DNA of 64,000 nt. It comes from Mustelus asterias. Its lineage: Eukaryota. Below are positions 1,640 through 57,527 of this stretch, piece by piece (the first letter of the stretch is position 1; every line of letters begins with the position of its first letter). Both the position numbers and the translations under genes were made by a program. The stretch covers positions 30,566,001 to 30,630,000 of the forward strand of contig NC_135828.1 of assembly GCF_964213995.1 (NCBI RefSeq). Direction: 5' to 3'. The notes beneath the pieces are model-generated. The model worked only from the letters and a program-made list of their open reading frames with translations, ran no database searches and was not told the DNA's origin.

Positions 1640-4600
1640 TTCAGTTAAATTTGGCTTAATAATCGGAGGTTTTTTTTCAAAACAGGAAGTAGGCCCAGGA
1701 GCAGCCTGGGGAGGTTTTTTGGAGGGTTTAAATGCAGGCCGCACTTTTGAGCGGGCAGCGTCTGGAGCGGGCAGTGGAGTGAGCAGGGAGCAGAGTGTGA
1801 GCTGTAAGGGCTTTGGCTCACAGGGCTTAGGCGAAGGCGAGGAAGGTTGTTTGTTTTTCTTCTGTTACACCCCCTTTTTTGTTTTATCTCCCAAAAACTA
1901 AACAGGACATGGCTGGTATGAGGGGGAGGCCAGTATACTGCATTCGGTGTGGGATGTGGGAGTTCCTGCAGACAACTTGCCTCCCGGAAGTCCATATCTG
2001 TGCCAGATGCGTGGAACTGCAACTCCTGAAGGAACGTGTAAAGGAGCTGGAGCTGAGGCTCGATGAACTCAGTTTAGTTAGGGAAAATGAGAGATTAATA
2101 GATAAAAGTTATATTCAGGGTCTCGGAAGGAAGACACGTGGGTGACAGTTAGGAGGGGTAATAGTCGGAAGGTGATGTGCCAGAAAGTACACCAGTGGCA
2201 GTCTCCCATAAAAGAAAGGGATGGGCAACAGATGGGAGAAGGGAAGGGAGTGAGCAGTCTGTGGTGGGATCCCCTGTGGTTGTCCCCCTCCAAAATAGGT
2301 ATATTGTTTTGGATTCTGTGGAGGGGGATGACCCTTCAGGGGTAAGCCACGAGGACAAGATCGCTTCCACGGAGACAGGCTCAGGGGTCCGGAAGGGAAA
2401 GAAGGGGTTTAGGAGAGCGATAGTTGTGGGGGACACAATGGTTAGAGGCACGGACAGGCGGTTCTGTGGGAGTGAACAAGAATCCAGGATGGCAGTCTGC
2501 CTCCCTGGTGCCGGGGTACTGGTTGTCTCCGAGAGGGTAGGAAGCATATTTAAAAAGGAAGGTAGTCAAACGGATGTGATTATACACATTGGTGAAAATG
2601 ATGTAGGTAGGAAGAGCAGGGGGGGTCATACGAGAGAAATTCAGGGAGTTGGGTGCTAGGCTAAAAAGTAAGGCCTCCAGGGTAGCAATCTCTGGACTGC
2701 TCCCGGTGTGTAGTCCAAGTGAGGCTCGGAACAGGGTGATTCTACAGTTGAACGCGTGGCTAAAGGACTGGTGCAAGAGGGAGGGTTTAAAATTCATAGA
2801 TAACTAGGAAATCTTCAAGTCAGGATGGCAACTGTACAGAAAGGATGGGTTACACCTTAACTGGAAGGGGGCAAATATCCTGGCTGGGAGTTTTGCTAGA
2901 TTGTTTCGGCAGGATTTAAACTAGTGTGGCAGGGGGGTGGGGAACAAAACAGTAGGTCAGTAAATACTGAGGCTGGGGTTGAGCTGGGGGCCAGGGCAAG
3001 GCTAGCTAAGAAGAGGAGCACTCTGGAGGAGGATGACCTGAGTGGGCCTGGAGGTCTGGAGTGCATCTGCTTCAATGCGAGGAGCGTAACGGGTAAAACA
3101 GACGAACTTAGGGCCTTAATGCTTATGCGGAATTTGGATATGATTGCGGTGACGGAAACTTGGTTAAACGAAGGACAGGACTGGCAGCTGAATATTCCGG
3201 GGTATAAGTGTTTTAGGCGAGACAGAGGAGGGGCTAAAAAAGATGGGGGAGTAGCGATATTAGTTAAGGAGCATATTACCGCGGTGCAGAGGGTAGACAA
3301 CTTAGAGGGGTCATATACTGAGTCGCTGTGGGTGGAACTCAGAAACAGGAAGGGTGCAGTCACTATGCTGGGGGTGTACTACAGACCACCCAACAACCCA
3401 CGGGAAGTGGAGGAAAGGATATGTCAGGAGATTCTGGATAGGTGCAGAAAAAATAGGGTTGTTGTAGTGGGGGACTTTAATTTCCCTGGCACAGACTGGA
3501 AAGTGCTTAGAGCTGGGGGTCCGGACCGGGAGGAATTTGTAAAATGCGTACTGGAAGGTTCTTTGGAACAGTATTAGATAGCCCGACTAGAGAGGGGGCT
3601 ATACTGGACCTAGTTCTGGGAAATGAGCCCGGTCAGGTCGTCAAAGTTTCGGTAGGGGAACATGTGGCAAATAGTCACCACAACTCTGTTAACTTTAGAA
3701 TAGTAATGGACAAGGATGAGTGCTGTCCTACGGGCAGGGTGCTAAATTGGGTGAAGGCTAACTATAGCCGGATGAGGCAGGAATTGGTGGATGTTGATTG
3801 GGAGAGGATGTTCGAGGGTAACTCCGCGTCTAGCATGTGGGAGTCTTTTAAGGAACTATTGATAAGGCTGCAGGATAGGCATGTGCCTGTAGAAAGGAAA
3901 GATAGGAAAGGTAGGATTCGAGAGCCGTAGATAACCAGGGAAATTGAGGATCTGATTAAAATGAAAAGGGAGGCGTACGTTAAGTCCAGGCTACAGAAAA
4001 CAGATGGAGCTCTGGAGGAATACAGAGAGAGTAGGAAAGAACTCAAACGGGGAGTTAGGAGGGCAACAAGAGGTCACGAGATGTTCTTGGCAGGCAGGAT
4101 TAAGGAGAATCCTAAGGCATTCTATTCATACGTTAGGAACAAAAGAGTTGTCAGGGAGAAAATCGGACCTCTCAGGGACAAACGAGGGGAATTATGCTTA
4201 GAGCTCAAGGGAATAGGGGAGATCCTAAATGAATACATTGCATCGGTATTCACGAAGGAGAGGGGCGTGTTAACCGGGAGTGTCTCGGAGGGAGGTGTTG
4301 ACCCGTTAGAGGAAATCTCTATTACAAGAGAGGAAGTGTTAGGTTTTTTAGGGAACAGTAAAACTGACAAAGCCCCAGGGCCTGATGGCATCTATCCTCG
4401 ACTGCTCAGGGAGACGAGAGATGAAATTGCTGGGCCTCTGACGGAAATCTTTGTCGCTTCTTTGGACACGGGTAAGGTCCCTGAGGATTGGAGGATAGCA
4501 AATGTGGTCCCGTTGTTTAAAAAGGGTAGTAGGGATCAACCAGGAAATTATAGGCCGGTGAGCTAGACGTCCGTGGTAGGGAAGTTGTTGGAAGGGAATC

Positions 4601-5925
4601 TTAGAGACAGGGTGTATGTGCATTTAGAACGGAACAATCTCATTAGTGACAGACAGCATGGTTTTGTAAGAGGGAGGTCGTGCCTTACAAATTTGGTGGA
4701 GTTCTTTGAGGAAGTGACAAAAACGGTTGATGAAGGAAGGGCCGTGGATGTCGTCTATATGGATTTCAGTAAGGCATTTGACAAGGTCCCACATGGCAGG
4801 TTAGTTAAGAAGGTTAAGGCTCATGGGATACAAGGAGAAGTGGCTAGATGGGTAGAGAACTGGCTTGGCCACAGGAGACAGAGGGTAGTGGTCGAAGGGT
4901 CTTTTTCTGGCTGGAGGTCTATGACTAGTGGTTTTCCGCAGGGCTCTGTACTGGGACCTCTGCTATTTGTGATATATATAAATGATTTGGACGAAGGTGT
5001 AACTGGTGTAATCAGCGAGTTTGCGGATGACATGAAGATGGCTGGACTTGCGGATAGTGAAGAGCATTGTCGGGCAATACAGCAGGATATAGATAGGCTG
5101 GAAAATTGGGCGGAGAGGTGGCAGATGGAGTTTAATCCGGATAAATGTGAAGTGATGCATTTTGGAAGAAATAATGTTGGGAGGAGTTATGCAATAAATG
5201 GCAGAGTCATCAGGAGTATAGAAACACAGAGGGACCTCGGTGTGCAAGTCCACAAATCCTTGAAGGTGGCAACACAGGTGGAGAGGGTGGTGAAGAAGGC
5301 ATATGGTATGCGTGCCCTTATAGGATGGGGTATAGAGTATAAAAGCTGGAGTCTGATGATGCAGCTGTATAGAACGCTGGTTAGGCCACATTTGGAGTAC
5401 TGCATCCAGTTCTGGTCGCCGCACTACCAGAAGGACGTGGAGGCGTTAGAGAGAGTGCAGAGAAGGTTTACCAGGATGTTGCCTGGTATGGAGAGTCTTA
5501 GCTATGAGGAGAGATTGGGTAAACTGGGGTTGTTCTCCCTGGAAAGACGGAGAATTAGGGGAGATCTAAAAGAGGTGTCCAAGATTATGAAGGGGATAGA
5601 TAGGGTGAACGGTGGGAAGCTTTTTCCCAGATCAGAAGTGACGTTCACGAGGGGTCACGGGCTCAAGGTGAGAGGGGCGAAGTATAACTCAGATATTAGA
5701 GGGATGTTTTTTACACAGAGGGTGGTGGGGGCCTGGAATGCGCTGCCAAGTAGGGTGGTGGAGGCAGGCACGCTGACATCGTTTAAGACTTACCTGGATA
5801 GTCACATGAGCAGCCTGGGAATGGAGGGATACAAACGATTGGTCTAGTTGGACCAAGGGGCGGCACAGGCTTGGAGGGCCGAAGGGCCTGTTTCCTGTGC
5901 TGTACTGTTCTTTGTTCTTTTGTTT
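1640..5925 (+). mobile_element. Near full-length CR1 LINE: ORF1 (Zn finger, coiled coil, SGNH esterase) and ORF2 (APE endonuclease plus RT), disabled
   Basis: ORF1 from ATG 1909: CIRC...CARC, LxxRVxELE, IVVGDT, IHIGENDV, DGLHLN. ORF2: CFNARS, AVTETWL, VVGDFN, APGPDG, MDFSKAFD, PQGSVLGP, FADD. Stops at ~3575, ~3928, ~4564; (tgttctt)n tail. Confidence 0.96.
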
Positions 5926-8900: not shown

Positions 8901-11338
8901 AGGGAGTTCCAGGTATTTGACACAGTGACAGGAAGTAACCCATCCATGTCAGGATGGTATGTGGCTTGATGCGGAATATGAATGTGATGAAATGTCCATG
9001 CGTCTGCTTTCCTAGGTGGCTGGGTGCACAGATATGGAAGATGCTATGGAAGGAGAATTGGTACGTTAATGCAGTGTATTTTGTCAGTGGGCTCTCACTC
9101 TACGTCAGTGGTGAAGGGAGTGAATAGTTAAGAATGTGATGGGGTGCCAATCAAATGGGTGGCAGAGGCTTGGAGGGTTTTTAGCATCTTGAGCCTTGTT
9201 GGGGCTTCACTCAGCCAGCAAAGTAGAGACTGTTCCACTGCACTACTGACTCATTCCCTGTAGAATGTAAACTTTATTTTCGGTATTGGAGAGGCGAATT
9301 GTAATGCGCATTGCAAAATCGTCAGTCTGTCCTTGATGATGAAGCGGAGGTCATTTATGGAACTGCTGAAGGTATTTGTGCCTCGACACAACTCTGAGAA
9401 ACTTCTGCAACGATCTAATGTGACTGAGGCCCTGGCATCAAACATCGACGATCATCTAAGTTTCAGATGTGCATGACTCCAACTAAAGGCGTGTTTCCCT
9501 TAATTCCCATTCATTCTGGTTTTCCTGGCGTTGCTTAATGCCGAGATATCAAGTGAGCAATTTTCACCTCAACTCTTGAGATCAGCTGATTTATTTCCCA
9601 CGTTTGGACCAAGCTACATTGTGGTCAGGAGCTGAGTGGACATTATATAATCCAAGCTGAGTTTTCCTGAGCAGTTTACTGCTGGCCATGTGCCATGTGA
9701 CATTGTTGCTTTTGACAACTTCTATCACTTTGCTAATGACAGTGAGAGGATGTATGGTATGGCTTTGTGTCTAATGTAATTAGTCTTGCATTCTGTGGAC
9801 CAGTCATAACTGTCCAATTCACAACATTGCCAGTTAGATGCTCCTATTGGAGATAAACAAGAACAACTTGCCCAGGGGAGTAATGAGTTCTGGAGCACAA
9901 CTTTGCAAAAATATTGTCAAAGTCCATAGTGTTTTACAGTATTGAGTGTCTTCAGCTGTTTCTCGATATTATGTGGACTGAATCGACATACCTGGCATCT
10001 GTGACCCTCCAACTCGTTCAGGAGGAGGCCAAGATGGGTCATCCAATTCGCATCTCCCCATTGATGAAGTACTCCCCCCTTTTCTTTTGCACTCGGGTGC
10101 TCGTACCTTCAACATCGTTGATACAGATGTTTGTGGAGCGTCTTCCCTTTAACCATAGAAACATAGAAAATTACAGCTCAGAAACAGGCCTTTTTGCCCT
10201 TCTTGTCTGTGCCAAACCACTTTATGCCTAGTCCCACTGACCTGCACTTGGAGCACATCCCTCCACACCCCTCTCATCCATGAAACCATCCAAGTTTTTC
10301 TTAAATGTTAAAAGTTGTTTACCACTTTATCCGGCATTATCCGGCAATTACCACTTTATCCGACAGCTCATTCCACAGTCCCACCACTCTCTGCGTGAAG
10401 AAGCCCCCCCTAATATTCCCTTTAAACTTTTCTCCTTTCACCCTTAACCCATGCCCTCTGGTTTTTTTCTCCCCTAGCCTCAGTGGAAAAAGCCTGCTTG
10501 TATTCACTCTATCTATACCCATCAAAATCTTATACACCTCTATCAAATCTCCCCTCAATCTTCTACGCTCCAGGGAATAAAGTCCCAACCTATTCAATCT
10601 CCCTCTGTAACTCAGCTTCTCAAGTCCCGGCAACATCCTTGTGAACTTTCTCTGCACTCTTTCAATCTTATTTACATCCTTCCTGTAACTAGGTGACCAA
10701 AACTGTACACAATACTCCAAATTCGGCCTCACCAATGCCTTATATAACCTTACCATAACACTCCAACTTTTATACTCGATACTCCGATTTACAAAGGCCA
10801 ATGTACCAAAGGCAGTCTTTACGACCCTATCCACCTGTGACGTCACTTTTAGGGAATTCTGTACCTGTATTCGCAGATCCCTCTGTTCAACTGCACTCTT
10901 CAGAGTCCTACCACTTACCCTGTACGTTCTTCTTTGGTTTGTCCTTCCAAAGTGCAATATCTCACACTTGTCTGCGTTAAATTCCATTTGCCATTTTTCA
11001 GCCCATTTTTCTAGTTGGTCCAAATCCCTCTGCAAGCTTTGAAAACCTTCCTCACTGTCCACTACACCTCCAATCTTTGTATCATCAGCAAACTTGCTGA
11101 TGCAATTTACCACATTATCATCCAGATCATTGATATAGATGACAAACAACAATGGACCCAACACCGATCCCTGCGGCACACCACTAGTCACAGGCCTCCA
11201 CTCAGAGAAGCAATCCTCCACAACCACTCTCTGGCTTCTTCCATTGATGTGGAGATGCCGGCGTTGGACTGGGGTAAGCACAGTAAGAAGTCTCACAACA
11301 CCAGGTTAAAGTCCAACAGGATTATTTGGTAGCAAATA

Positions 11339-11375
11339 CCATAAGCTTTCGGAGCACAGCTCCTTCTTCAGATGG
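11339..11375 (-). ncRNA. Minimal type I hammerhead-ribozyme-like motif (left arm, copy 1)
   Basis: Reverse strand reads ccat-CUGAAGA-A-GGAGC-ugu-GCUCC-GAAA-GC-UU-augg: core boxes, stem II and stem I. Confidence 0.7.
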
Positions 11376-11436
11376 AGTGGATATCTGTTCTCAAACAGTG
11401 CAAACAGTTTGCACTGTTTGAGAACAGATATCCACT

Positions 11437-11473
11437 CCAGCTGACGAAGGAGCTGTGCTCCGAAAGCTTATGG
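11437..11473 (+). ncRNA. Minimal hammerhead-ribozyme-like motif (right arm, copy 1; one stem I mismatch)
   Basis: ccag-CUGACGA-A-GGAGC-ugu-GCUCC-GAAA-GC-UU-augg. Confidence 0.6.
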
Positions 11474-13284
11474 TATTTGCTACCAAATAAACCTGTTGGA
11501 CTTTAACCTGGTGTTGTGAGACTTCTTACTGTTCTTCCATTGAGCCAGTGTCTAATCCAAGTTACTACCTCCCCATGTATACCTAGCGACTGAACCTTCC
11601 TAACTAACCTCCCATGAGGGACCTTGTCAAAGGCCTTGCTGAAATCCAGGTAGACAACATCCACCGCCTTCCCTTCATCCACTTTCCTGGTAACCTCCTC
11701 GAAAAACTCTAATAGATTGGTCAAACATGACCGACCACGCACAAAGTCATGTTGACTCTCCCTAATAAGTCCCTGTCTATCCAAATATTTGTAGATCCTA
11801 TCCCTTATCACACCTTCCAAACACTTGCCCACCACTGACGTCAAGCTTACTGGCCGATAATTTCCCGGATTTCTTTTGGAACCTTTTTTAAACAACGGAA
11901 CAACATGAGCCACCCTCCAATCATCCGGCACCTCCCCCGTGAATACTGACATTTTAAATATGTCTGCCAGAGTCCCTGCAAGTTCAACACTAGCTTCCCT
12001 CAAGGTCCGTGGGAATACCCTATCCGGTCCTGAGGATGTATCCACTCTGATTTGCCTCAAGACAGCGAGCACCTCCTCCCCTTTAATCTGTAAAGGTTCC
12101 ATGGCCTCCCTACCAGTTTGCCCTATTTCCGTAGACTCCATGCCCGTTTCCTCAGTAAATACGGATGCAAAAAAACCATTTAGTATCTCCCCCATCTCTT
12201 TTGGTTCCATACACAGTGTACCACTCTGGTCTTCAAGAGGACCAATTTTATCCCTCACTATCCTTTTGCTCCTAACAGACCTATAGAAGCTCTTTGGATT
12301 TTCCTTCTCTCTGTCTGCCAAAGCAACCTCATGTCTTCTTTTAGCCCTCCTGATTTCCCTCTTAAGTAGCTTCTTGCACTTTTTATACTCCTCGAGCATC
12401 TGATGTGTTCCTTGCTGCCTGTACATTTCATACAACTCTCTCTTCCTCTTAATCAGCGTTACAATCTCCCTCGAGAACCAAGGTTCCTTATTCCTATTTA
12501 CTTTGCCTTTAATCCTGACAGGAACATACAAACTCTGCACTCTCAAAATTTCTCCTTTGAAGGCCTCGTGGTTTCCATTTACATCCTTACCAGAGAACAG
12601 CCTGTGCCAATCCACACTTCCCAGATCCCTTCTCATTTCATCAAATTTGGGCTTTTTCCAGTTCAGAACTTCAACCCGAGGACCAGATCTATCCTTACCC
12701 ACGATCAGGTTGAAACTAATGGCATTATGATCACTGGATCCAAAGTGTTCCCTCACACTCACATCCATCACCTGCCCTAACTAATTTCCCAATAGGAGAT
12801 CCAATATCGCATACTCTCTAGTTGGCACCTCTATATACTGATGTAGAAAATTCTCCTGAACACATTTTACAAACTCTACCCCGTCTAAACCTTTAACAGT
12901 ATGCGAGTCCCAATCTATATGTGGAAAATTAAAATCCCCTACTATCACAACTTTGTGTTTCTTGCAGTTGTCAGCTATCTCTCCGCTGATTTGCTCCTCC
13001 AATTCTCGCTGACTATTGGGTGGTCTATAATACAAGCCCATTAATGTGGTCATACCTTTCCTGTTATCTTTTTTAACGGTCTAGTATCATTCATGATTGT
13101 ATGTGCCTGGATTGCCGAGTTTAATTTTATTCTGCTGACTTTGGTATCACTTTCGCCATCCATTGCGTGCTGCCACCGCTATTTCACATTGAAGTAGTCC
13201 AATGTTTCAGCTTCATCAGGTTGACACCTAAATTTGGTTTGCCTGATGCTCCTGTTCTGCACCGTTCTTTGAGCAATGGTTCAT

Positions 13285-16499: not shown

Positions 16500-18805
16500 G
16501 TCTGATAAATCTGTTAGAGTTCCTTCAGGAGGTGACAATGCAGTTAGATAATGGAGAACAAGTGGACGTGATTTATTTAGATTTCCAGAAGGGCTTTGAC
16601 AACATGTCGCATGGGAGACTTTTAAAGATGTTAAGTGCCCATAATGTTAAGGGTAAGATGCTGGCATGGATAGAGGATTGACTGACTGGCAGAAGGCAGA
16701 GAGTGGGGATAAAGGGGTATTTTTCAGGATGGTAGCCGGTGACCAGTGGTGTGCCTCAGGGTCAGTGCTGGGACCAGAACTTTTCACAATATGCATTAAT
16801 GATTTGAAAGAAGGAACTGAAGGCACTGCTGCAAAGTTTGGAGATGGTGCAAGGATATGTAGAGGGACCAGTAGTATTGAGGAAGCAGGGGGCTGCAGAA
16901 GGACTTGGATAGGTTTGGAGAGTGGGCAAAGAAGTGGCAGATGGAATACAATGTGGAAAAGTGTGAGGTTATGCACTTTGGATGCAGGAATGGAGGCATA
17001 GACTATTTTCGAAATGGGAATATGCTTAGAAAATCAGAAACACAAAGGGACTTGGGAGTCATTGTTCAAGATTCTCTGAGGGTTAACGTGTAGGTCCAGT
17101 CGGCAGTTAGGAAGGCAAATGCACTGTTAGCATTCATTTTGAGACGGCTAGAATACAAGAGCAAGACTGTACTTCTGAGGACTTATACGCCTCTGGACAG
17201 ACCCCTTTTGGAGTATTGTGAGCAGTTTTGGGCCCCATATCTAAGGAAGGATGTGCGGCTTTGGAAATGGTCCATAGGAGGTTCTCAAGAATGATCCTTG
17301 GAACGAAGAGCTTGTCGTATGAGGAACGGTTGAGGACTCTAGTTTTGTATTCGTTGGAGTTGTGAAGGATGGTCAAAGAAGACAGAGGGTAGCAGTGGAA
17401 GGGTGAGTTTCTGAATGGAGGGCTGTGACAAGTGGTGTTCCTCAGTGTTTGCTGTTTGTAATATATATAAATGATTTGGATGAAAATTTAACTGGATTGA
17501 TTGGTAAGTTTGCGGACGACACAAAGGTTGGCAGATTTGTGGATAGCGATGATGGCCATTAGAGGATACAGCAGGATATAGATCAGTTGGAGACTTGGGT
17601 GGAGAGATGGCAGATGGAGTTTAATCCGGACAAATGTGAAGTAATGCATTTTGCAAGGTTTAATACAGATAGCAAATATACAGTAAATGGCAGAACCCTT
17701 AAGAGTATTGACAGGCCAAGGGATCTGGGTGTACAGGTACACAGGTCACTGAAAGTGGCAATGCAGGTGGAGAAGGTAGTCAAGAAGACATATGGCATGT
17801 TTGTCTTCATCAGCCGGCGTATTGAGTTTAAAAATTGGCAAGTCATGTTGACGCTTTATAGAACCTTAGTTCGGCCGCACTTGGAATATAGTTTTCAATT
17901 CTGGTCGCCACACTACCAGAAGGATGTGGAGGCTTTGGAGAGGGTACGGAAAATATTTACCAGGATGTTGCCTGGTATGGAGGGCATTAGCTATGAGGAG
18001 AGGTTGGAGAAACTTTGTTTGTTTTCACTGGAGGTGGTTGAGGGGAGACCTGATAGAAGTCTGCAAGATTATGAGAGGCATGGACAGAGTGGATAGTCAG
18101 AAGCTTTTTCCCAGGGTGGAAGAGTCAATTACTGGGGGGCATAGGTTTAAGGTGCGAGGGGCAAGGTTTAAAGGGGATGTACGTGGCAGATCTTTTACAC
18201 AGAGAATAGTCAGTGCCTGCAAATCGTTGCCGGGGGAGATAATGGAAGCAGACGGTAGTGACTTTTAAGGGGCCTCTTAACAAGCATATGAATAGGATGG
18301 GAATAGAGGGATGTGGTCCCAGGAAGGGTAGGGGGTTTTAGTTAAGTCACGCAGCATGGTCGGTGCAGGCTTGGAGGGCTCGGGGGCCTGTTCCTGTGCT
18401 GTAATTTTCTTTGTTCTTTGTTCTTTGATGAGCGGGGATTGTATTGAAACTTACAGGATACTGCGAGGCCTATATAGAGTGACGTGGAAAGGATGTTTCC
18501 AATAGTAGGAAAAACGAGAACCAGAGGACACAACCTCAGGCTAAAGGGACGATCCATTTAAACAGAGCAGAGGAGAAATTTCTTCAGCCAGAAGCGGCGA
18601 ATCTGTGCCGCAGAAGGCTGTGGAGGCCAGGTCTTTGAGTGTATTTAAGACAGAGATAGATAGGTTTTTGATTAACAAGGTTCTTGATTAAAAATGGGGG
18701 AAAGGGAGGAGAATGGGGATGAGAAATATATGAGCCGTGATTGAATGGTGGAGCAGATTCCATGGGCCAAGTGGCCTAATTCTGCTCCCATGTCTTATGG
18801 TCTCA
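16500..18805 (+). mobile_element. Decayed CR1 (16500-17370, resuming 18428-18805) hosting a second CR1 fragment (~17370-18427)
   Basis: DVIYLDFQKGFD; the host C-terminal sequence is broken and resumes (gggggattgtattgaaacttac) after the (tgttctt)n tail of the nested copy. Confidence 0.85.
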
Positions 18806-28344: not shown

Positions 28345-29915
28345 ATTTTGAAATTTGATTGGGTTTTTTCAACGGGTAACCAAGAAGGTAAATGAGGGCA
28401 CTGCAGTTGATGTTGTCGACATGGGCTTTAGCAAGGCTTTTGACATGATACCCAATGGTAGGTTGTTGCATAAGGTTGAATCTCAAGGGATCCAGGGTGA
28501 GGTAGCTAACTGGATATAAAATTGGCTTCTTGACAGAAGTCATGATGTGGAGATGCCAGCGTTGGACTGGGGTAAGCACAGTAAGAAGTCTCACAACACC
28601 AGGTTAAAGTCCAACAGGTTTATTTGGTAGCAAATACCATAAGCTTTCGGAGCACAGCTCCTTCGTCAGATGGAGTGGATATCTGTTCTCCAACAGTGCT
28701 CTGACACAGAATCTGTGCACTGTTGGAGAACAGATATCCACTCCATCTGACGAAGGAGCTGTGCTCCGAAAGGTTATGGTATTTGCTACCAAATAAACCT
28801 GTTGGACTATAACCTGGTGTTGTGAGACTTCTTACTGTTCTTGACAGAAGCCAGAGGGTGGTTGCAGAGGGATGCTTTTCAAACTGGACGCCTGTGACCA
28901 GCGGTGTGCCTCAGGGATCAGTGCTGGGTCCGCTGTTATTTGTCATTTATATTCACGATATGGATGAGAATATAGGAGGCATGGTTAGTAAGTTTGCAGA
29001 TGACACCAGGATTGGTGGCAGAGTGGACAGCGAAGAAGGTTATCTCGGATTGCCACGGGATCTTGATCAATTGCGCCAATGGACTCACGAATGGCAGATG
29101 GAGTTTAATTTAGATGAATGCAACGTGATGCATCTTGGTAGATTGAACCAGGGCAGGACTTACTCAGTTAATGATAGGGCGTTGGGAATCGTTAAAGAAC
29201 AAAGAGATCTCGGGGTACATTTTCATAGCTCCCTGAAAGTGGAGTCACAGGTGGACAGAGTGGTGAAGAAGGCAATCACATGCTTGGTTTCGTTGGTCAG
29301 AACCATGAATACAGGAGTTGGGACGTCTTGCTGAAGTTGTACAAGACATTGGTAAGGCTACACTTGGAATACTGTGTACTGTGTACAGTTCTGGTCACTG
29401 AAAGGATATTATTAAACTAGAAAGACTGCAGAAAAGATTTACTAGGATGCTACCGGGAATTGATGGTTTGAGTTATAAGGAGAGGCTGGATCGACTGGGA
29501 CTTTTTTCTCTGGAGCATAGAAGGCTGAGGGGTGATCTTACAGAGGTCTATGAAATAATGAGGGGTACAGATCAGCTAGATCGTCAATATCTTTTTCCAA
29601 AGGTGGGGGAGTGTAAAACTGGAGAGCATAGGTTTAAGGTGAGAGGGGAGAGATACAAAGGTGTTCAGAGGGGGATGTTTTCCACACAGAGTGTGTTAAG
29701 TGTCTGGAACAGGCTGCCAGAGGTATTAGTAAAGGCGGGTACAATTTAGTCTTCTAAAAAGCATTTTGACAGTTACACAGGTAAGTTGGGTATAGAGGGA
29801 TATCGGCCAAATACGGGCAATTGGGACTAGCTTAGGGGTTTAAAAAAGAGGTGCCATGGACAAGTTGGGCCGAAGGGTCTGTTTCCATGCTGTAAACCTC
29901 TATGACTCTATGACA
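28345..29915 (+). mobile_element. 5'-truncated decayed CR1 interrupted by a Penelope-derived palindrome
   Basis: PVTSGVPQGSVLGP, FADD, RDLGVH motifs; ctctatgactctatga tail. Confidence 0.92.
28540..28837. mobile_element. Non-autonomous palindromic Penelope-like element, copy 2, with hammerhead-like motifs at 28637-28673 (-) and 28743-28779 (+)
   Basis: Arms ~28579-28699 and 28717-28837; 13-bp TSD ttcttgacagaag at 28527-28539 and 28838-28850; near identical to copy 1. Confidence 0.9.
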
Positions 29916-33824: not shown

Positions 33825-34778
33825 TTGGTGCTGGGTCCACTTTTATTTGTCGTTTATGTTAATGATTCCGATGAGAATATAGGAGACGTGGTTCGTAAGT
33901 TTGCAGCTGACACCAAGATTCGTGGCATAGTGGACAGTGAAGAAGGTTATCTCGGATTGCAACGGGATCTTGATCAATTGGGCCGGCGGGCTGACGAATG
34001 GCAGATGGAGTGTAATTTAGATAAATGCAACGTGATGCATTTTGGCAGATTGAACCAGGGCATGACTTACTCAGTTAATTGTAGGGTTTGGGAAGAGTTA
34101 CAGAGCAAAGAGATCTCGGGGTACAGGTTAATAGCTCCTTGAAAATGGACAGAGTCGTGAAAAAGGCATTCAGTTTCATTTATCAGAACATTGAATACAG
34201 GAGTTGGGACGTCTTGTTGAAGCTTTACAAGACATTGATAAGGCTACACTTGGAATACTGTGCACAGTTCTGGTGACCCTATTATAGAAAGGATATTATT
34301 AAACTAGAAAGAGTGCAGGAGAGATTTGCAAGGATGCTACCGGGTCTTAATGGTTTGAGTTATAAGGAGAGGCTGGAGAGACTGAGACTTTTTTCTCTGG
34401 AGTGTAGAAGGGTGACCTTATAGAGGTCTATAAAATAATGAGGGGCATAGATCAGCTAGATAGTCAACATACTTCCCCAAAGGTAGGGGAATCTAAAACT
34501 CGAGGGCATAGGTCGAAGGTGAGAGTCAGAGATACAAAAGTTGTCCAGAGGGGCATTTGTTTTCTCACAGAGTGTCTGGAACAAGCTGTCAGAGGTAGTA
34601 GTAGAGGTTGGAACAATTTTGTCTTTTAAAAAGCGTTTAGACAGTTACATGGCTAAAATGGGTATACAGAGATATGGGCCAAATATGGGCAACTGGGACT
34701 AGCTTACGGGTTTAAAATAGGCAAATGGACAAGTTGGGCCGAAGGGCCTGTTTCCATGCTGTAAAACTCTATGACTGT
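33825..34778 (+). mobile_element. 5'-truncated decayed CR1 in a TRBC intron
   Basis: VLGPLLFVVYVND, FAAD, HLEYCAQFW; ctctatga tail; same family as 28345-29915. Confidence 0.9.
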
Positions 34779-36877
34779 GAAAGCAACACATTTAATCCTG
34801 ATTGGAAACAGAGCAAGGTGCGATAGGGGGTGAGGGTGGAGGTGAGTGTTGGCGGTGGGGGGGTGGGATGTGGTTGGAGGCGGAGGGCATGGGGGGGGCT
34901 TCTTTGCAGTGAATGGCTAGGAATTGGTGTGCAGTCCCTGGGAGGGCTGCATTATATGATTCAATATTAGCTTCCAAATGACAATTGTATAAATAATTCC
35001 AAGAGGAAAGATTTGCAGGAATAGTGGTGAGGATTTGGAGAGTTGCACTGTGCATTTGAAAGATTTGGCGTAGACACAATGTGCTGCACTATTTGAGAAA
35101 ATTATGGAGTTATATTATGTCTCCAAATTCGGCATTTTGTTTTGTAACTTCCATGGGTATCGACTATCAATGCATGATCTAACAGATTAAAAAGGAACAC
35201 ATGAGTGAATGACTTGATCGAGTTGATTGAAGGACGTCTTCAACATGAGTGTCAACAGTCCATAATAATAGGACGTAATTTGAAAATTGGAGGCAGGCTG
35301 TTGTGGGCACATATTATGAAGCACATTACTAACGCTGCTTTATGAAAGCCTTGTTTTCCAAAGTACTGTTGGGTCTGGGGGTGAATTGAAAATGTCAGGT
35401 CTCTGGTATGGACAAGTCTGACTGGCCGGTCGGGAACAGGAAAATCAGTGATCGCTATGGAACCAAGGCGAGGAAGGACGACTCATCCTTATATTAAATG
35501 GTCGGAGAGGTGAGAGGAGTTGAAGGCCAACTCAAGTTCTTATCTCATTTATGAAGCATCAAACTGTAAATTCCTCTTTCCCTGTACTTCCTTATCCTCA
35601 ATAACTCCTTCTCCGTCTCTTATTATCAGATCATGTTTTATAGATTGGCTTTCTATTTCCCCTGATGTGAACTGGCATTGTATTCTCATTTTCTTGTTTT
35701 GCCACCCGCTCTCCTTCTCAAAATCCTGCCTCGGGTAATGAAACCAATGCTGCATTCAGTCCTCAGCAAGGTAATATATACTGATAGTATCTCTTTGTAA
35801 CATTTCCTAATTCTTTGCTGCATCTGGAGGTGAGTGATGTACAAGGGTAACGAGCTCCCGCTGGATACCAACTGAACAAATTCTACAATGTTGACACCAT
35901 TCTGATACAAATTCTGGCCGGTCGGGAGTCCAAACAAGCGACAGCATCTCATCTTCACCCTTCTGGACCCGCATGGCACCAATGCGCAGCTGAAATCCTG
36001 AATGAATGAGCACTGTTGCAGAAGGGTGTGACTAATGAATAGAACAAATCCATCCCTTTCTCTGTGTGCTGTTCAGCAGAAGTTTGATTCTGGCCCACTT
36101 TCCCAGGCACCTGATGTTATACGATACAACAGTACTTTGCGCCCGATTTGAAACTCTCCACTGGTGCCCCTTTGAGGCAGGAATGTGGTTACTGTAATGT
36201 AAGTACATATCAGCTTGTTCATCTCCTCCTCCTTACAACCTCATGCCCTTGGAATTTACTTACAATTTCAGTAAAAAAATGCAGTTAAATTCTGAAAGAC
36301 TGTTTGATTCTGTCTCCATGACAGTCTGAGGTTCATTCCTCCCAATACATTCACCACTTACACAGGAAAAATGAAGTGTAGTTATTTCGATGGACTGAAA
36401 TACCTACTTTCTGCTCTTATGGCTTATGGGCTCATAGTCCCGGGGTGTGGCATTCACTTTGATAATTGAGCAATACACATTCGTGCACCCACCTCCTGCC
36501 AGTAGTATCATTATCTCACAGTTTGCCATGTCAAATCTGCTTAAGAGTTGGAAGACATTTCTCTCAGCCTTCTTTCTACAAGTAGACCAAATACATCTCA
36601 TCCTGTTTGCTGTTCCTAACTGAGAAGTCTCTGATCCTTGAACAATTTTGGTAAATATTTACCTCTTTAGTAGCTTCGCATATGTCTGAATTGCTGCACA
36701 ATATTCCAGTTGAGGCCGCACAAGTGGTTTTTGTCTCCCCCCACCCCGCCCCCCACAACCCCCCCCCCCCCCTCCCCCGCCCCGCCCCCCTCCACACACA
36801 CATACACATACACTTTTTTCAGGTCGGGTAAACTAAAAGACCGATCAGGGCTGATTCCAGAATGTGAAGACACCCAC

Positions 36878-37213
36878 CTGTCTTACTTCTAATCTTCTCC
36901 TCGGCATGCACCTCCTTCCCTTCTTTACTGTAATGCGTTACTTTGCACGAAAACTCCTGGCGTCCCCAATCCTCCCGGGACACAGTCACCCGGCTGCTCA
37001 CACTGTAGACGTTGAGCTGGGCCTTCACCGGCCTGTCCGTCACCACATACTTCTCCTCGACCTCTTGGCCGTCCGCGCTCCAGTAGAATTTCACATAGTC
37101 CGGAAAGAAGTGACTGGCCAGGCACACTATGGTAACTTTCCTGTGATCCCGGATCTCTTCTTCCGATGGCTCAAAAATCGTCACCTTGGGGTGCTTAACC
37201 TCCTGACCTGCCT
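36878..37213 (-). CDS. TRBC: TCR beta-like constant region exon 1 (C1-set Ig domain)
   Basis: cattccag|AG GCA...; (E)AGQEVKHPKVTIFEPSEEEIRDHRKVTIVCLASHFFPDYVKFYW...YSVSSRVTVSREDW...FSCKVTHY...KIRSKT|gtgggt. TRBC hallmarks FEPSxxEI, VCLAxxFxPD, YxxSSR, W and both Cys are present; frame is open. Confidence 0.95.
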
Positions 37214-37479
37214 CTGGAATGTGTGGAGGACACGGGGAAGAAGGGAGGTGCAACAAACGAAATTTGTTAACAGATGGAACAGATGGAGAGTAACGAAGAT
37301 GATGTTAAACAGGGTTATTTCTCTCTCACCGTTATTCTGGTTGGCAATTGACATTTGTTCACCTGATTATTTGACCTTGTGTTGCATCACACTAAACCTT
37401 GATTCCGCTGCAAACGAGGGGCATTCCATTATCAGATTGTCCCGGAGTGTGTAAAGACATAATTTGAGAAATCGAGCAG

Positions 37480-44160: not shown

Positions 44161-44437
44161 ATCATTTTGAGAGATCAAGACATGAGGGGAAAAGGTACAG
44201 AATAAGAAGTTTACAGAATAAAAGTGTACAAAATAAAAGGTACAGAATAGGAAGGTTGTAGGCCATTATCTGTTGGAACCCCTGTATCGGTTGTGTGTTA
44301 TCTGACAGTGGAGCTGTGTTACCTTTGTGTTAGTCGGAGCCTCTGTATCGGTTGTGTGCTCTATAACAATATCACTATGTGAGTTGTGTCACTTAAATGA
44401 CCTTTATCAGTTATGTGTTCTATGTCAGTGGATATCT

Positions 44438-44572
44438 ATGATGTGGAGATGCCGGCGTTGGACTGGGGTAAACACAGTATCCATGTGACGAAGGAGCAGC
44501 GCTCCGAAAGCTAATGGTATTTGCTACCAAATAAACCTGTTGGACTTTAACCTAGTGTTGTTAAAACTCTTA
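44438..44572 (+). mobile_element. Single-arm Penelope-derived element, copy 3, with a core-mutated hammerhead-like motif (44481-44517)
   Basis: Same 5' leader tgatgtggagatgccggcgttggactgggg and same 3' arm; TSD cagtgga(t/c)atct at 44426-44437 and 44573-44584. Confidence 0.85.
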
Positions 44573-44643
44573 CAGTGGACATCTCTACCAGTCGTGTCAG
44601 TTGGCCCTCAGTATACCCGAACAGGCGTTGAAGTGTGGCGACT

Positions 44644-47600
44644 CATGTGCCTGTAAAAAGGAAACATAGAACATAGAACATAGAACATTACAGCGCAGAA
44701 CAGGCCCTTCGGCCCACGATGTTGCACCGACCAGTTAAAAAAAAAAACTGTGACCCTCCAACCTAAACCAATTTCTTTTCGTCCATGAACCTATCTACGG
44801 ATCTCTTAAACGCCCCCAAACTAGGCGCATTTACTACTGATGCTGGCAGGGCATTCCAATCCCTCACCACCCTCTGGGTAAAGAACCTACCCCTGACATC
44901 GGTTCTATAACTACCCCCCCTCAATTTAAAGCCATGCCCCCTCGTGCTGGATTTCTCCATCAGAGGAAAAAGGCTATCACTATCCACCCTATCTAAACCT
45001 CTAATCATCTTATATGTTTCAATAAGATCCCCTCTTAGCCGCCGCCTTTCCAGCGAAAACAATCCCAAATCCCTCAGCCTCTCCTCATAGGATCTCCCCT
45101 CCATACCAGGCAACATCCTGGTAAACCTCCTCTGCACCCTCTCCAAAGCCTCCACATCCTTCCTGTAATGTGGGGACCAGAACTGCACACAGTACTCCAA
45201 GTGCGGCCGCACCAGAGTTGTGTACAGTTGCAACATAACGCTACGACTCCTAAATTCAATCCCCCTACCAATAAACGCCAAGACACCATATGCCTTCTTA
45301 ACAACCTTATCTACTTGATTCCCAACTTTCAGGGATCTATGCACACATACACCTAGATCCCTCTGCTCCTCCACACTATTCAAAGTCCTCCCGTTAGCCC
45401 TATACTCAACACATCTGTTATTCCTACCAAAGTGAATTACCTCACACTTCTCCGCATTAAACTCCATCCGCCACCTCTCGGCCCAACTTTGCAACCTGTC
45501 TAAGTCTTCCTGCAAACTACGACACCCTTCCTCACTGTCTACCACACCACCGACTTTGGTGTCATCAGCAAATTTGCTAATCCACCCAACTATACCCTCA
45601 TCCAGATCATTAATAAATATTACAAACAGCAGTGACCCCAAAACAGATCCCTGAGGTACACCACTTGTAACCGCACTCCATGATGAATATTTACTATCAA
45701 CCACCACCCTCTGTTTCCTATCCGCTAGCCAATTCCTGATCCAATTTCCTAGATCACCCCCAATCCCATACATCTGCATTTTCTGCAGAAGCCTACCATG
45801 GTGAACCTTATCAAACGCCTTACTAAAATCCATATATACCACGTCCACTGCCTTGCCCCCATCCACCTCCTTGGTCACTTTCTCAAAAAACTCAATAAGG
45901 TTAGTAAGGCACGACCTACCTGCCACAAAACCATGCTGACTATCACCTATCAATTCATTACTCTCCAAATAACTATAAATCCTATCCCTTATAATTTTTT
46001 CCAACATCTTGCCGACAACAGAAGTGAGACTCACCGGTCTATAATTCCCGGGGAAGTCTCTGTTCCCCTTCTTAAACAATGGGACAACATTCGCTAACCT
46101 CCAATCTTCTGGTACTATACCAGAGGCCAACGACGACCTGAAGATCAGAGCCAGAGGCTCTGCAATCACTTCTCTTGCCTCCCAGAGAATCCTTGGATAA
46201 ATCCCATCCGGACCAGGGGATTTATCTATTTTCAGACCCTCCAGAATATCCTGCACATCCTCCTTATCAACTGTAATACTGTCTATTCTACTCCCTTGCA
46301 ACCCAGTGTCCTCCTCAGCTATATTCATGTCCCCTTGCGTGAACACCGAAGAGAAATATTGGTTCAATGCTTCACCAATCTCCTCCGGTTCCACACATAA
46401 CTTCCCTCTGCCATCTATAACTGGCCCTAAACTTGCCCTAACCAACCTTCTGTTCTTGACATACCTATAGAACGCCTTAGGATTCTCTTTAACCCTATCC
46501 GCCAAAGTCTTCTCATGTCCCCTTTTAGCCCTTCTAAGCTCGCTCTTCAACTCCCTCTTAGCCAATCTAAAGCTTTCTAGTGCACTACCCGAGTGCTCAC
46601 GTCTCATCCGAACATAAGCCTCCTTTTTCTTTTTAACCAACAAAGAAACTTTTTTGGTGCACCACGGTTCCCTAGCCCTACCAATTCCTCCTTGCCTGAC
46701 AGGGACATACCTATCACAGACTCGCAGTAGCTGCTCCTTGAAAAAACTCCACATGTCGGACGTTCCCAGTCCCTGTAATCTCCTAGTCCAACCTATGTTT
46801 CCTAATTCTCTCCTAATAGCCTCATAATTACCCTTCCCCCAGCTAAAACCACTGGCCCGAGGTTCATGCCTATCCCTTTCCATCACTAAGGTGAACGTAA
46901 CCGAATTGTGGTCACTATCACCAAAATGCACACCAACTTCCAAGTCCAAGAAAGATAGGAAAGGTAGGATTCGAGAGCTGTGGATAACCAGGGAAATTGA
47001 GGATCTGATTAAAATGAAAAGTGAGGCGTACGTTAAGTCCAGGCAACTGAAAACAGATGGAGCTCTGGAGGAATACAGAGAGAGTAGGAAAGAACTCAAA
47101 TGGGGAGGTGGAAGGGCAAAAAGAGGTCACGAGATGTTCTTGGCAGGCAGGATTAAGGAGAATCCTAAGGCATTCTATTCATACGTTAGGAACAAAAGAG
47201 TTGTCAGGGAGAAAATCGGACCTCTCAGGGACAAAGGAGGGGAATTATGCTTAGAACCCGAGGGAATAGGGGAGATCCTAAATGAATACTTTGCATCGGT
47301 ATTCACGAAGGAGAGGGGCGTGTTAACCGGGAGTGTCTCGGAGGGAGGTGTTGACCCGTTAGAGAAAATCTCCATTACAAGAGAGGAAGTGTTAGGTTTT
47401 TTAGGGAACAGTAAAACTGACAAAGCCCCAGGGCCTGATGGCATCTATCCTCGACTGCTCAGGGAGACGAGAGATGAAATTGCTGGGCCTCTGACGGAAA
47501 TCTTTGTCGCTTCTTTGGACACGGGTGAGGTCCCTGAGGATTGGAGGATAGCGAATGTGGTCCCGTTGTTTAAGAAGGGTAGCAGGGATAACCCGGGAAA

Positions 47601-48975
47601 TTATAGGCCGGTGAGCTTGACGTCCGTGGTAGGGAGGTTGTTGGAGAGGATTCTGAGAGACAGGATGTATGTGCATTTAGAACGGAACAATCTCATTAGT
47701 GACAGACAGCATGGTTTTGTAAGAGGGAGGTCGTGCCTTACAAATTTGGTGGAGTTTTTTGAGGAAGTGACAAAAACGGTTGATGAAGGAAGGGCCGTGG
47801 ATGTCGTCTATATGGATTTCAGTAAGGCATTTGACAAAGTCCCACATGGCAGGTTGGTTAAGAAGTTTAAGGCTCATGGGATACAAGGAGAAGTGGCTAG
47901 ATGGGTGGAGAACTGGCTTGGCCATAGGAGACAGAGGGTAGTGGTCGAAGGGTCTTTTTCCGGCTGGAGGTCTGTGACCAGTGGTGTTCCGCAGTGCTCT
48001 GTACTGGGACCTCTGCTATTTGTGATATATATAAATGATTTGGAAGAAGGTGTAACTGGTGTAATCAGCAAGTTTGCGGATGATACGAAGATGGCTGGAC
48101 TTGCGGATAGTGAAGAGCATTGTTGGGCAATACAGCAGGATATAGATAGGCTGGAAAATTAGGCGGAGAGGTGGCAGATGGAGTTTAATCCGGATAAATG
48201 CGAAGTGATGCATTTTGGAAGAAATAATGTAGGGAGGAGTTGTACAATAAATGGCAGAGTCATCAGGAGTATAGAAACACAGAGGGACCTAGGTGTGCAA
48301 GTCCACAAATCCTTGAAGGTGGCAACACAGGTGGAGAAGGTGGTGAAGAAGGCATATGGTATGCTTGCCTTTATAGGACGGGGTATAGAGTATAAAAGCT
48401 GGAGTCTGATGATGCAGCTGTATAGAACGCTGGTTAGGCCACATTTGGAGTACTGGGTCCAGTTCTGGCACTACCAGAAGGACGTGGAGGCGTTAGAGAG
48501 AGAGCAGAGAAGGTTTACCAGGATGTTGCCTGGTATGGAGGGTCTTAGCTATGAGGAGAGATTGGGTAGACTGGGGTTGTTCTCCTTGGAAAGACGGAGA
48601 ATGAGGGGAGATCGAATAGAGGTGTACAAGATTATGAAGGGTATAGATAGGGTGAACAGTGGGAAGCTTTTTCTCAGGTCGGAGGTGACGATCACGAGAG
48701 GTCACGGGCTCAAGGTGAGAGGGGCGAAGTATAACTCAGATATCAGAGGGACGTTTTTTACACAGAGGGTGGTGGGGGCCTGGAATGCGCTGCCAAGTAG
48801 GGTGGTGGAGGCAGGCACGCTGACATCGTTTAAGACTTACCTGGATATTCACATGAGCAGCCTGGGAATGGAGGGAAACAAACGATTGGTCTAGTTGGAC
48901 CAAGGAGTGGCACAGGCTTGGAGGGCCGAAGGGCCTGTTTCCTGTGCTGTACTGTTCTTTGTTCTTTGTTCTTTT
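44644..48975 (+). mobile_element. 5'-truncated CR1 of the same family as 1640-5925, split near its 5' end by an inverted CR1
   Basis: catgtgcctgtaaaaaggaaa (44644) continues as gataggaaaggtagg (~46954), as at 3880-3915; TSD gactc at 44640-44644 and 48976-48980. Confidence 0.93.
44665..46945 (-). mobile_element. Very young 5'-truncated CR1 with an uninterrupted ORF2 remainder
   Basis: No stops from ~46940 to 44763; all RT motifs present; (ttctatg)n tail. Confidence 0.95.
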
Positions 48976-50744: not shown

Positions 50745-51726
50745 GATGCATTACAGTGAGAAACCGCACCGACCTCCTCAGAAGGCAAACACGGGACACG
50801 GCCGACAGAGTGCCCTTTGTTAGCCAGTACTTCCCTGGAGCGGAGAAGCTACAACATCTTCTGCGAAGCCTTCAACACGTCATTGATGAAGACGAACATC
50901 TCTCCAAGGCCATTCCCACACCCTACTATGTGCCTTCAAACAACAGCGCAACCTCAAACAGACCATTGTTCCCAGCAAACCACTCAGCCTTCAGGAGAAC
51001 AGCGACCACAACACCACACAATCCTGCCACAGTAACTTCTGCAAGATGTGCCAGATCACCTAGACGGATGCCATCATCTCACGTGAGAACACCATCCACC
51101 AGATGCACTGTACATACTCTTGAGACTCGGCCAACGTTGTCTACCTGATACACTGCAGGAAAAGATGTCCCGAGGCATGGTACATCGGCAGACGCTACAA
51201 CAACGGATGAATGGACACCGCTCGACAATTACCAGGCAGGAGTGTTTTCTTCCTGTCGGGGCACACTTCAGCAGTCAAGGGCATTCAGCCTCTGATCTTC
51301 GGGTAAGTATTCTCCAAGGCATCCTTCAAGACACACAACAATGCAGAATTGCCGAGCAGAAACTGATGGTCAGGTTCCGCACACATGAGGACGGCCTCAA
51401 CCGGGATCTTGGGTTCACGCTATACTACCATTTGTTACTGTCCCATTCTGGGATTGCAATATCTTACTCACTGTCCTGGCTCGAGACAATTCACACCTCT
51501 TTAATCTGTGCTTAACCGCTCTCCACTCGCATTTTGTACACCTGTAAAGAATTGATTACCTGTTAAGACACGCATTCCAACCATTTCCTTTAATTGAGTT
51601 TTTGTCTATATATGCCCTGTTTGTGAACCCGATTCTTCACTCACCTGATGAAGGGGCAGTGATCCGAAAGCTCGTGCTAACAAATAAACCTGCTGGACTT
51701 TAACATGATGTTGTGAGACTTCTCAT
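50745..51726 (+). mobile_element. Penelope-like retroelement 3' fragment (GIY-YIG endonuclease plus terminal repeat), decayed
   Basis: DSANVVYLIHCRKRCPEAWYIG...QTLQQRMNGHR...EQKL...GLNRDLG; 3' end shared with the palindromic elements. Confidence 0.9.
51642..51676 (+). ncRNA. Minimal hammerhead-ribozyme-like motif of the Penelope terminal repeat
   Basis: cac-CUGAUGA-A-GGGGC-agu-GAUCC-GAAA-GC-UC-gug; stem I (cac/gug) covaries with ccau/augg of the other copies. Confidence 0.65.
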
Positions 51727-56885: not shown

Positions 56886-57527
56886 CGTTCTGTCCATGGG
56901 TTGCTTGCATTTTCCATATTTCCAAGGAATTAAGTTTGTGAAATTTAGCTTGCTGCCTCCATATCTTATAAAACCATATATATTTTATTGCGAAAGACAT
57001 TTTTATAATGCCCTTAAGGATCTGGTCTCTGCAGCCCGCAGCTGTGGTTAACATCTCTTCAGAGATAACGAGGCAGTGGTTCTGCAATACCTCCAAATCA
57101 CTCTCATTGTACACGGTTCACAATCAGGCAATGTTGTCTGACGATGGTGTAAACCTGACTCACGTTCCCAATTACAGGATGTACAATTCAACGTTTTGTG
57201 AATTATTCTTCACAATGATAGAAAAACTCAATACCAAAGGATAAACATGTGATGTTGCCAAGAACGCTTGGCCGGCACAATTATTATTTCATGTTCTAAC
57301 TTTTCTGACTCCTTCGCCTTAAAATCCAGAACATTGTCAGATGCAATTCTCGTCTTTTGTGTTGGTGGTAGAAATCAATGGTCCAATAAATGTAGCTCAT
57401 CTGCTCCAGGTGGGTTTCCTCCATTGCGTGAGCTCATTATTTGACACCTGCATTGGGCTGGAAAACAATTGTGCAGCTCCTTCAAAATCTTCATCTGTCA
57501 TGTTCCCAAGACCGGCTATCACAAGGA

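Follow-up and report, generated by a model that had tools for sequence, protein, structure and literature searches.

A Penelope-like element (PLE) has repeatedly entered CR1-type ORF2 copies at one and the same codon. In the 64,000-nt stretch of the Mustelus asterias genome analysed here (GCF_964213995.1, contig NC_135828.1; referred to below as the window), two short palindromic insertions split two different CR1 copies at the same codon, each between exact target-site duplications, as a first-pass annotation of this DNA had noticed. Two predicted proteins from database searches join an element of this kind to CR1 at that codon as well, and we regard the hotspot at the W-L-x-x-R-S-Q codon as very probably real. 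On balance we favour the explanation that the PLE endonuclease nicks both strands symmetrically and with moderate sequence specificity and that reverse transcription of the element RNA then starts from both ends, the conserved CR1 codons being the commonest near-match to the preferred site.

Copy 2 (28540..28837, minus strand in the sense of the element) is a short PLE insertion consisting of two head-to-head pLTR arms (28579-28704 and 28712-28837, complementary at 122/126 positions) and a tail of 39-40 nt (28539/28540-28578). It lies between exact 13-nt duplications (28527..28539 and 28838..28850, plus strand), which would be 12 nt long if G28539 is element-templated, and the GCCA half-site follows at 28850-28853. 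Copy 1 (11245..11531, minus strand) belongs to the same PLE family and has arms at 11281-11405 and 11407-11531 (122/125 complementary), a tail of 36 nt and an exact 12-nt duplication (11236..11247, plus strand, and 11532-11543, again followed by the GCCA half-site); its first 3 nt are common to element and duplication. The same tail opens all three short copies in the window, at 11245, 28543 and 44439. In the proteins P0010, P0028 and P0064 the element continues as GS-HDVEM into its own ORF, the tail being read as G-S-H-D-V-E-M. Judging from these proteins the extra tca of copy 2 is element-templated and G28539 probably is too, and copy 2 would therefore also be compatible with a 12-nt stagger.

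The tails of copies 1 and 2 have opposite orientations relative to their CR1 hosts, and the copies differ from each other at the centre of the palindrome and, among the first 120 bases of the arm, at a single arm-symmetric position. Because the duplications are different and the hosts share 67.8% identity over 1041 nt, these differences make the insertions independent events, as the first-pass annotation had argued, and a single duplicated event behind both is excluded. The two palindromes (11281-11531 and 28579-28837) nevertheless turn at nearly one point, with arms of 125-126 nt, although their origins are independent, which suggests a preferred stop of reverse transcription or an annealing point in the pLTR.

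The inserts are probably short non-autonomous products of a shark element of the Penelope/Poseidon type. The Poseidon clade name is our assumption from structure, and not from a phylogeny. The Penelope-like layout is present, i.e. an inverted pLTR, a tail of 36 and 40 nt at one end and duplications of variable length (12 nt and 12-13 nt exact, imperfect in copy 3), and inverted pLTR, tail and duplication make up the typical Penelope layout in the available text of PMC3846280. The three short copies have no ORF, no element RT was seen, and a GIY-YIG-like region was found only in a decayed relative, by inspection and via P0028. This relative is the older 3' part of a related PLE (50747..51725, plus strand) with a frameshifted GIY-YIG-like region and a pLTR at 51611-51725, which the arms of the inserts match. 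The residues VVYLI...WYIG were recognised there by inspection, and this older copy reveals the family and its orientation; the sequence is 70% identical to P0028 over 70 aa, and Atlas neighbours of P0028 carry PF01541. Pfam scans detected no GIY-YIG domain in the window fragments or in P0028. Searching the window with nhmmer gave no copies besides the four known ones. Of the 57 proteins that the element profile retrieved, three were named Scyliorhinus torazame, pointing to a cartilaginous fish as the source.

A minimal hammerhead-like core (CTGACGA, stem II, GAAA) was recognised by inspection in the tail-bearing arm of copy 2 (28645..28669, minus strand), with its mirror at 28747-28771 (plus strand). 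By the same kind of inspection the putative core CTGAYGA-stem II-GAAA is present in all arms, and stem II forms in two of three arm folds (copy-1 and copy-3 arms). Hammerheads are already known in PLEs, according to the available text of PMC6155905. At its gathering score Rfam gave no hammerhead, and its sole match in the window was an rRNA fragment, a decayed piece of 28S rRNA (57135-57287, minus strand; RF02543, 65.7 bits) that might belong to an rRNA-derived SINE. Folds of copies 1-3 (eight stretches with filled junctions) gave no significant z-score, and hairpin stability is not claimed; the tail region 28540-28640 (minus strand) folds as a long stem with CCAGUCCAAC paired with the pLTR (z -1.17, not significant). 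The window also contains an immunoglobulin C1-set constant-domain exon (36819-37304, minus strand; Pfam E 2.1e-18), for which the PDB matches are antibody constant domains. It may be a T-cell receptor constant exon, which it resembles.

Both hosts are CR1-type ORF2 sequences. Host 2 is a decayed fragment (28352..29776, plus strand; tblastn; Pfam RVT_1 E 8.7e-12) split at W-L-L-D-R/S-Q-R-V-V, and host 1, of another subfamily (10343..12864, minus strand; RVT_1 E 1.1e-15), is split at W-L-N-G-R/S-Q-R-V-V. Pfam recognised the non-LTR RT domain (RVT_1) in each host as well as in the 787-aa frame used as reference; the CR1 label is presumed from the first-pass annotation together with this Pfam match, and not from a clade phylogeny. 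The window is animal DNA rich in repeats, and matches to one long CR1-type ORF2 cover 19,592 of its 64,000 bases. One ORF2 (44763-47126, minus strand) is open for 787 codons and apparently young, and two copies of one young subfamily (3640-5847 and 46828-48894, plus strand) are 93-97% identical in repeat blocks.

Seven homologous CR1 sites in the window are empty: 4861..4880 (plus strand) and those starting at 16679+, 21401+, 22168+, 39482-, 45731- and 47914+. The AGC (Ser) codon completes the symmetry of the site and is absent from all seven; among the nine window copies spanning the site, hosts with the Ser codon were occupied in 2/2 cases and the others in 0/7 (Fisher p 0.028, post hoc). 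The empty sites had been described as quasi-palindromic, and the outer arms of the inverted repeat indeed match at 8/10 positions in host 2 and 5/10 in host 1, compared to 1-2 in eight other homologous CR1 sites (the seven spanning the W codon and one fragment starting inside the site). Among background 20-mers, arms of at least 5 occur in 0.14% and of at least 8 in 0.003%. One CR1 fragment starts within the hotspot interval (17361-17380, plus strand), where it is joined to the end of another CR1; this start may reflect breakage at the same site, or a coincidence given the many 5' ends.

For the three pairs of copies in the window, the probability that any one pair falls on homologous CR1 positions to within 1 nt by chance is 4.8e-4. 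If a genome of 3-4.5 Gb made up of similar windows is assumed, about 22-34 of them would have such a pair by chance, so that the window alone is suggestive, not decisive. As an outside test we used predicted proteins that read from the flank into the element tail; at this protein level neither a duplication, a flank base nor the second junction is visible. A blind search with a 30-residue peptide, of which 28-29 residues are from the element, gave 29 matches among 1.84 billion representatives, a profile search gave 57 of 623 candidates, and two further searches gave 2 and 4 proteins. Out of 66 proteins, 36 had the tail motif and a flank of at least 8 residues, and subtraction of three that run into the element's own ORF left 33 junctions, a pattern-based count that misses a few more with variant letters. 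Of the two further searches, the first, a 40-aa query of element plus flank, returned two proteins, neither at the site. The second, for read-out fusions of the copy-1 type, returned four proteins, i.e. three empty hosts and a PLE N-terminus (P0006), and no fusion at the site; such a search favours empty hosts because intact frames are favoured. A match in the flank of P0009 was a 7-residue chance match and was dropped. Scanning the GTDB genomes with the tail motif gave two bacterial matches; L001 has no further element sequence and was taken as chance.

Five proteins have in-frame CR1 ORF2 flanks, namely P0011, P0055, P0017 and P0020 by tblastn and P0054 by eye. P0011 reads N-W-L-S-H-R/S-Y-D-V-E-M and P0055 N-W-L-S-H-R/S-H-D-V-E-M, the junction being at the same codon as in copy 2 (W-L-L-D-R/S-H-D-V-E-M). 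Their hosts belong to different subfamilies (75% identity over 55 residues, element part included), both differ from host 2, and the element in P0011 is of another subfamily. The W-L-S-H-R of these hosts is absent from the nine window copies; its S-H codons could repeat the junction bases of the element or form a second short inverted repeat. In the blind search, one of three in-frame ORF2 junctions was at the codon (P0011; p 0.004-0.013, or 0.065 if gene-calling bias is allowed for by a factor of five), and with all searches combined two of five were (p 2e-5 to 5e-3), window coverage serving as the weight for these p values. P0011 came from the blind search and P0055 from a search seeded with the flank of P0011, so the latter is not fully blind. 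The preferred site proposed in the first-pass annotation has thus gained two further independent junctions, seen at protein level. Use of the hotspot amounts to 2/3 window copies and 2/33 database junctions. With the other 31 junctions elsewhere and copy 3 not in CR1 at all, insertion is not restricted to CR1.

With a 12-nt stagger for copy 2, the sequence at each of the four nicks in copies 1 and 2 is A^GCCA (^, nick), and together these give the symmetric site TGGC^N12^GCCA. The first-pass annotation had described the target as TGGC^TTCTT...AGCCAG. Of this, TGGC...GCCA at 12-nt spacing is retained as the likely core, while TTCTT is probably not required, since the W-L-S-H-R hosts of P0011 and P0055 cannot encode TGGC^TTCTT in the orientation of copy 2. 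The inner 12 nt also differ between host 1 and host 2. Once the elements are taken out of the window, exact matches to the 8-base motif number two in about 63,200 positions (0.78 expected) and both occurrences are occupied, a circular count in that the motif was derived from these two sites. With at most one mismatch there are 31 sites in the emptied window, of which 14 are in CR1 ORF2 and 6 at the hotspot position; the motif alone therefore predicts a CR1 hotspot without recognition of CR1. P0017 joins after F-G-R-L-N-Q, and the nick of its homologue in the window, an empty near-consensus site (34043..34062, plus strand; CR1 codons F-G-R-L-N-Q/G; 7/8), falls exactly there; the host-2 homologue matches at 6/8. 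This match is non-circular, but the host DNA of P0017 is inferred from homologues. Against the motif, the CR1 junctions of P0020 and P0054, whose elements belong to other subfamilies, are at positions where the window homologues show none. A spacing scan of the whole window with a looser motif gave no clear 12-nt peak (8 compared to 9 at 15 nt), as expected for unselected sequence.

Copy 3 (44439..44573, minus strand) is of a related subfamily and has the tail and one arm, with an imperfect duplication (44427-44438 and 44574-44587). Its site had been called unrelated: it does lie outside CR1 and has 4/8 mismatches to the strict 8-base motif, which counts against the motif, but next to its junctions it keeps CCAG, on the 3' side of the one at the tail (a post hoc match with a chance of about 0.8-1.0%), and, on the opposite strand, GACA. 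In each of the three copies the CCAG 3' of the junction at the tail also occurs within the tail itself. Copy 3 lies in degenerate repeated sequence (44190-44438) that includes a neighbouring 15-nt tandem array (44190-44249).

From these observations we infer a GIY-YIG endonuclease, probably a dimer, that would nick the two strands at positions about 12 nt from each other and would moderately prefer A^G(C)CA on either one, resulting in TGGC^N12^GCCA. Each 3' end would prime reverse transcription on the element RNA, possibly aided by 1-4 nt of microhomology. The end primed at the distal start would give arm plus tail, the other, primed at the proximal start 36-40 nt upstream, would give the arm only, and the two truncated cDNAs would join in the middle to form the head-to-head insert. 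The CR1 RT codons W-L (TGG CTN) and R-[S/R]-Q (AGR AGC/AGR CAG) spell both half-sites at the right spacing. As these are conserved codons of a very abundant repeat, a recurrent hotspot would be expected, best in Ser-codon subfamilies and in either orientation. In the anole, the Poseidon protein cuts the two strands and extends each of them, initiates reverse transcription at either limit of the tail in the RNA and is a predicted dimer (PMC11167929, available text). The inserts, with tail-end and arm-end junctions, head to head on a symmetric target, map onto these two starts, which suggests two nicks of one specificity with both 3' ends priming. The counts behind our explanation are small, and two published points speak against it: the characterised PLE endonucleases prefer AT-rich DNA (PMC11167929, available text), and self-priming has been proposed for inverted PLE arms (PMC3846280, available text). 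A bolder version, which we consider doubtful, is that the dimeric GIY-YIG enzyme acts like a small homing endonuclease on a GC-rich symmetric site fixed by the CR1 RT codons, cutting 12 nt apart and priming both ends, so that CR1 ORF2 would be a selected, self-renewing landing pad on which each landing disables a CR1.

Nicking could instead be loose, and only those nicks whose 3' ends resemble the two starts of reverse transcription would become insertions. Microhomology is indeed found at most junctions (3 nt at the tail of copy 1, AAGAA compared to AAGCA of the template at both arm junctions, CACT compared to CACA in copy 3), and the S-H-D-V at the end of several database junctions would fit a primer with A or AG as its last bases. 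Microhomology, a contribution of which the first-pass annotation had suggested, amounts to 1-4 nt at the junctions, but alone it leaves unexplained the GCCA shared 3' of the nicks, which is 4/4 in copies 1 and 2 and outside the primer. It explains neither the P0017 match nor the W-L-S hosts (P0011, P0055), in which the TTCTT that gives the arm-side homology is missing, and we find such primer selection unlikely. The same annotation had called the element a CR1-targeting parasite, and a dedicated subfamily with long-site specificity, using CR1 ORF2 as a safe haven, would account for one codon taking 2/3 window copies and 2/3 in-frame ORF2 junctions of the WGKHSK-type element; multicopy repeats including transposons are a known target strategy (PMC4640811, available text). 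With 31/33 database junctions elsewhere, copy 3 outside CR1, P0017 at another CR1 position and inner 12 nt that differ between hosts, the dedicated strategy does not hold up and is quite unlikely.

Coincidence from the scanning of many windows must be considered given the 22-34 windows expected under simple assumptions, and the blind replicate is one protein; two further junctions at a codon named beforehand and the motif match at the P0017 position make it very unlikely. A further possibility is RNA-guided retrohoming, in which the CR1 flank of a read-through RNA from a CR1-nested copy would pair with other CR1 copies. Both empty targets have TGGCTTCTT adjoining the duplication in the orientation of the element, and PLEs can carry flanking DNA (PMC3846280, available text). 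Copies 1 and 2 differ arm-symmetrically and P0011 has another element subfamily, so no donor-daughter link is visible, and the RNA sites at which the anole protein primes lack homology to the DNA that it cuts (PMC11167929, available text); we hold retrohoming to be highly improbable. Finally, the common codon, element family and similar lengths could reflect a single old insertion whose carrier CR1 was multiplied by duplication, gene conversion or retrotransposition. The host-specific duplications, host divergence and opposite orientation contradict this, as do P0003-P0005, database proteins of host 1's subfamily that are empty and keep the same WLNGRSQRVV site, and its probability is close to nil. 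The moderately specific double nick remains the explanation that we prefer.

The choice of target by PLEs and the formation of head-to-head repeats are stated to be open questions in the available text of PMC8557442, and searches of the open full-text literature showed no report of a GC-rich symmetric PLE target or of a PLE hotspot in CR1. If true, a symmetric GC-rich target cut with a constant 12-nt stagger would supply the in vitro system of PMC11167929 with a defined substrate and would allow two-ended priming to be tested directly against self-priming. Under the homing-endonuclease-like reading the palindromic inserts would be direct genomic records of two-ended priming. With a recurrent hotspot, PLE insertions nested in CR1 at this codon are also homoplastic and should not be relied on as phylogenetic markers.

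The closest counterpart described is the Anolis carolinensis Poseidon PAc, which has similar inserts with a hammerhead core in the pLTR and a 30-40 nt tail between two starts of reverse transcription; both strands are cut and extended by a predicted dimer, and the arm-plus-tail and arm-only ends of the window inserts fit its two starts (PMC11167929, available text). PAc prefers AT-rich DNA (ATT), whereas the window half-site would be the GC-rich A^GCCA with a 12-nt stagger, and no CR1 hotspot is described in the available text of that paper. Penelope of Adineta vaga and Drosophila virilis shares the inverted pLTRs, the optional tail and occasional nesting in retroelements, and its duplications of 8-10 bp are counted as a likeness; it differs in its AT-rich targets, in the self-priming proposed for the inversion and in that the available text reports no recurrent site (PMC3846280). 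Human transposon nesting hotspots are alike in the reuse of one host-repeat position, MER1 entering MIR3 in both orientations via an integration motif, but they concern Alu, hAT, ERV1 and MaLR, and the word Penelope does not occur in the available text (PMC2836564). R2, the Tx1 clade and Utopia also use a conserved site in multicopy sequence, and reptile Utopia shows weakened specificity for short target-like sequences (PMC4640811, available text). Multicopy targets are likewise used by the rDNA-targeting PLE-X and the microsatellite-biased Naiad, Chlamys and Hydra (PMC8557442, available text). Unlike all of these elements, the window element is mostly off-site and its target is a coding motif of another retrotransposon. 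Target-specific elements in the sense of R2, Tx1 and Utopia have most copies at one long site; here 2/3 copies in the window and 2/33 in the database are at the codon. A nucleotide-precise recurrent junction is present, with the same nicks in copies 1 and 2 and the same codon, at protein level, in P0011 and P0055. GIY-YIG homing endonucleases such as I-BmoI also target conserved codons, where the site is held constant, and make two nicks. Enzymes of the I-BmoI type act as monomers on long asymmetric sites, leave a 2-nt overhang and involve no reverse transcription, and the PLE endonuclease inferred here would have the same nuclease fold.
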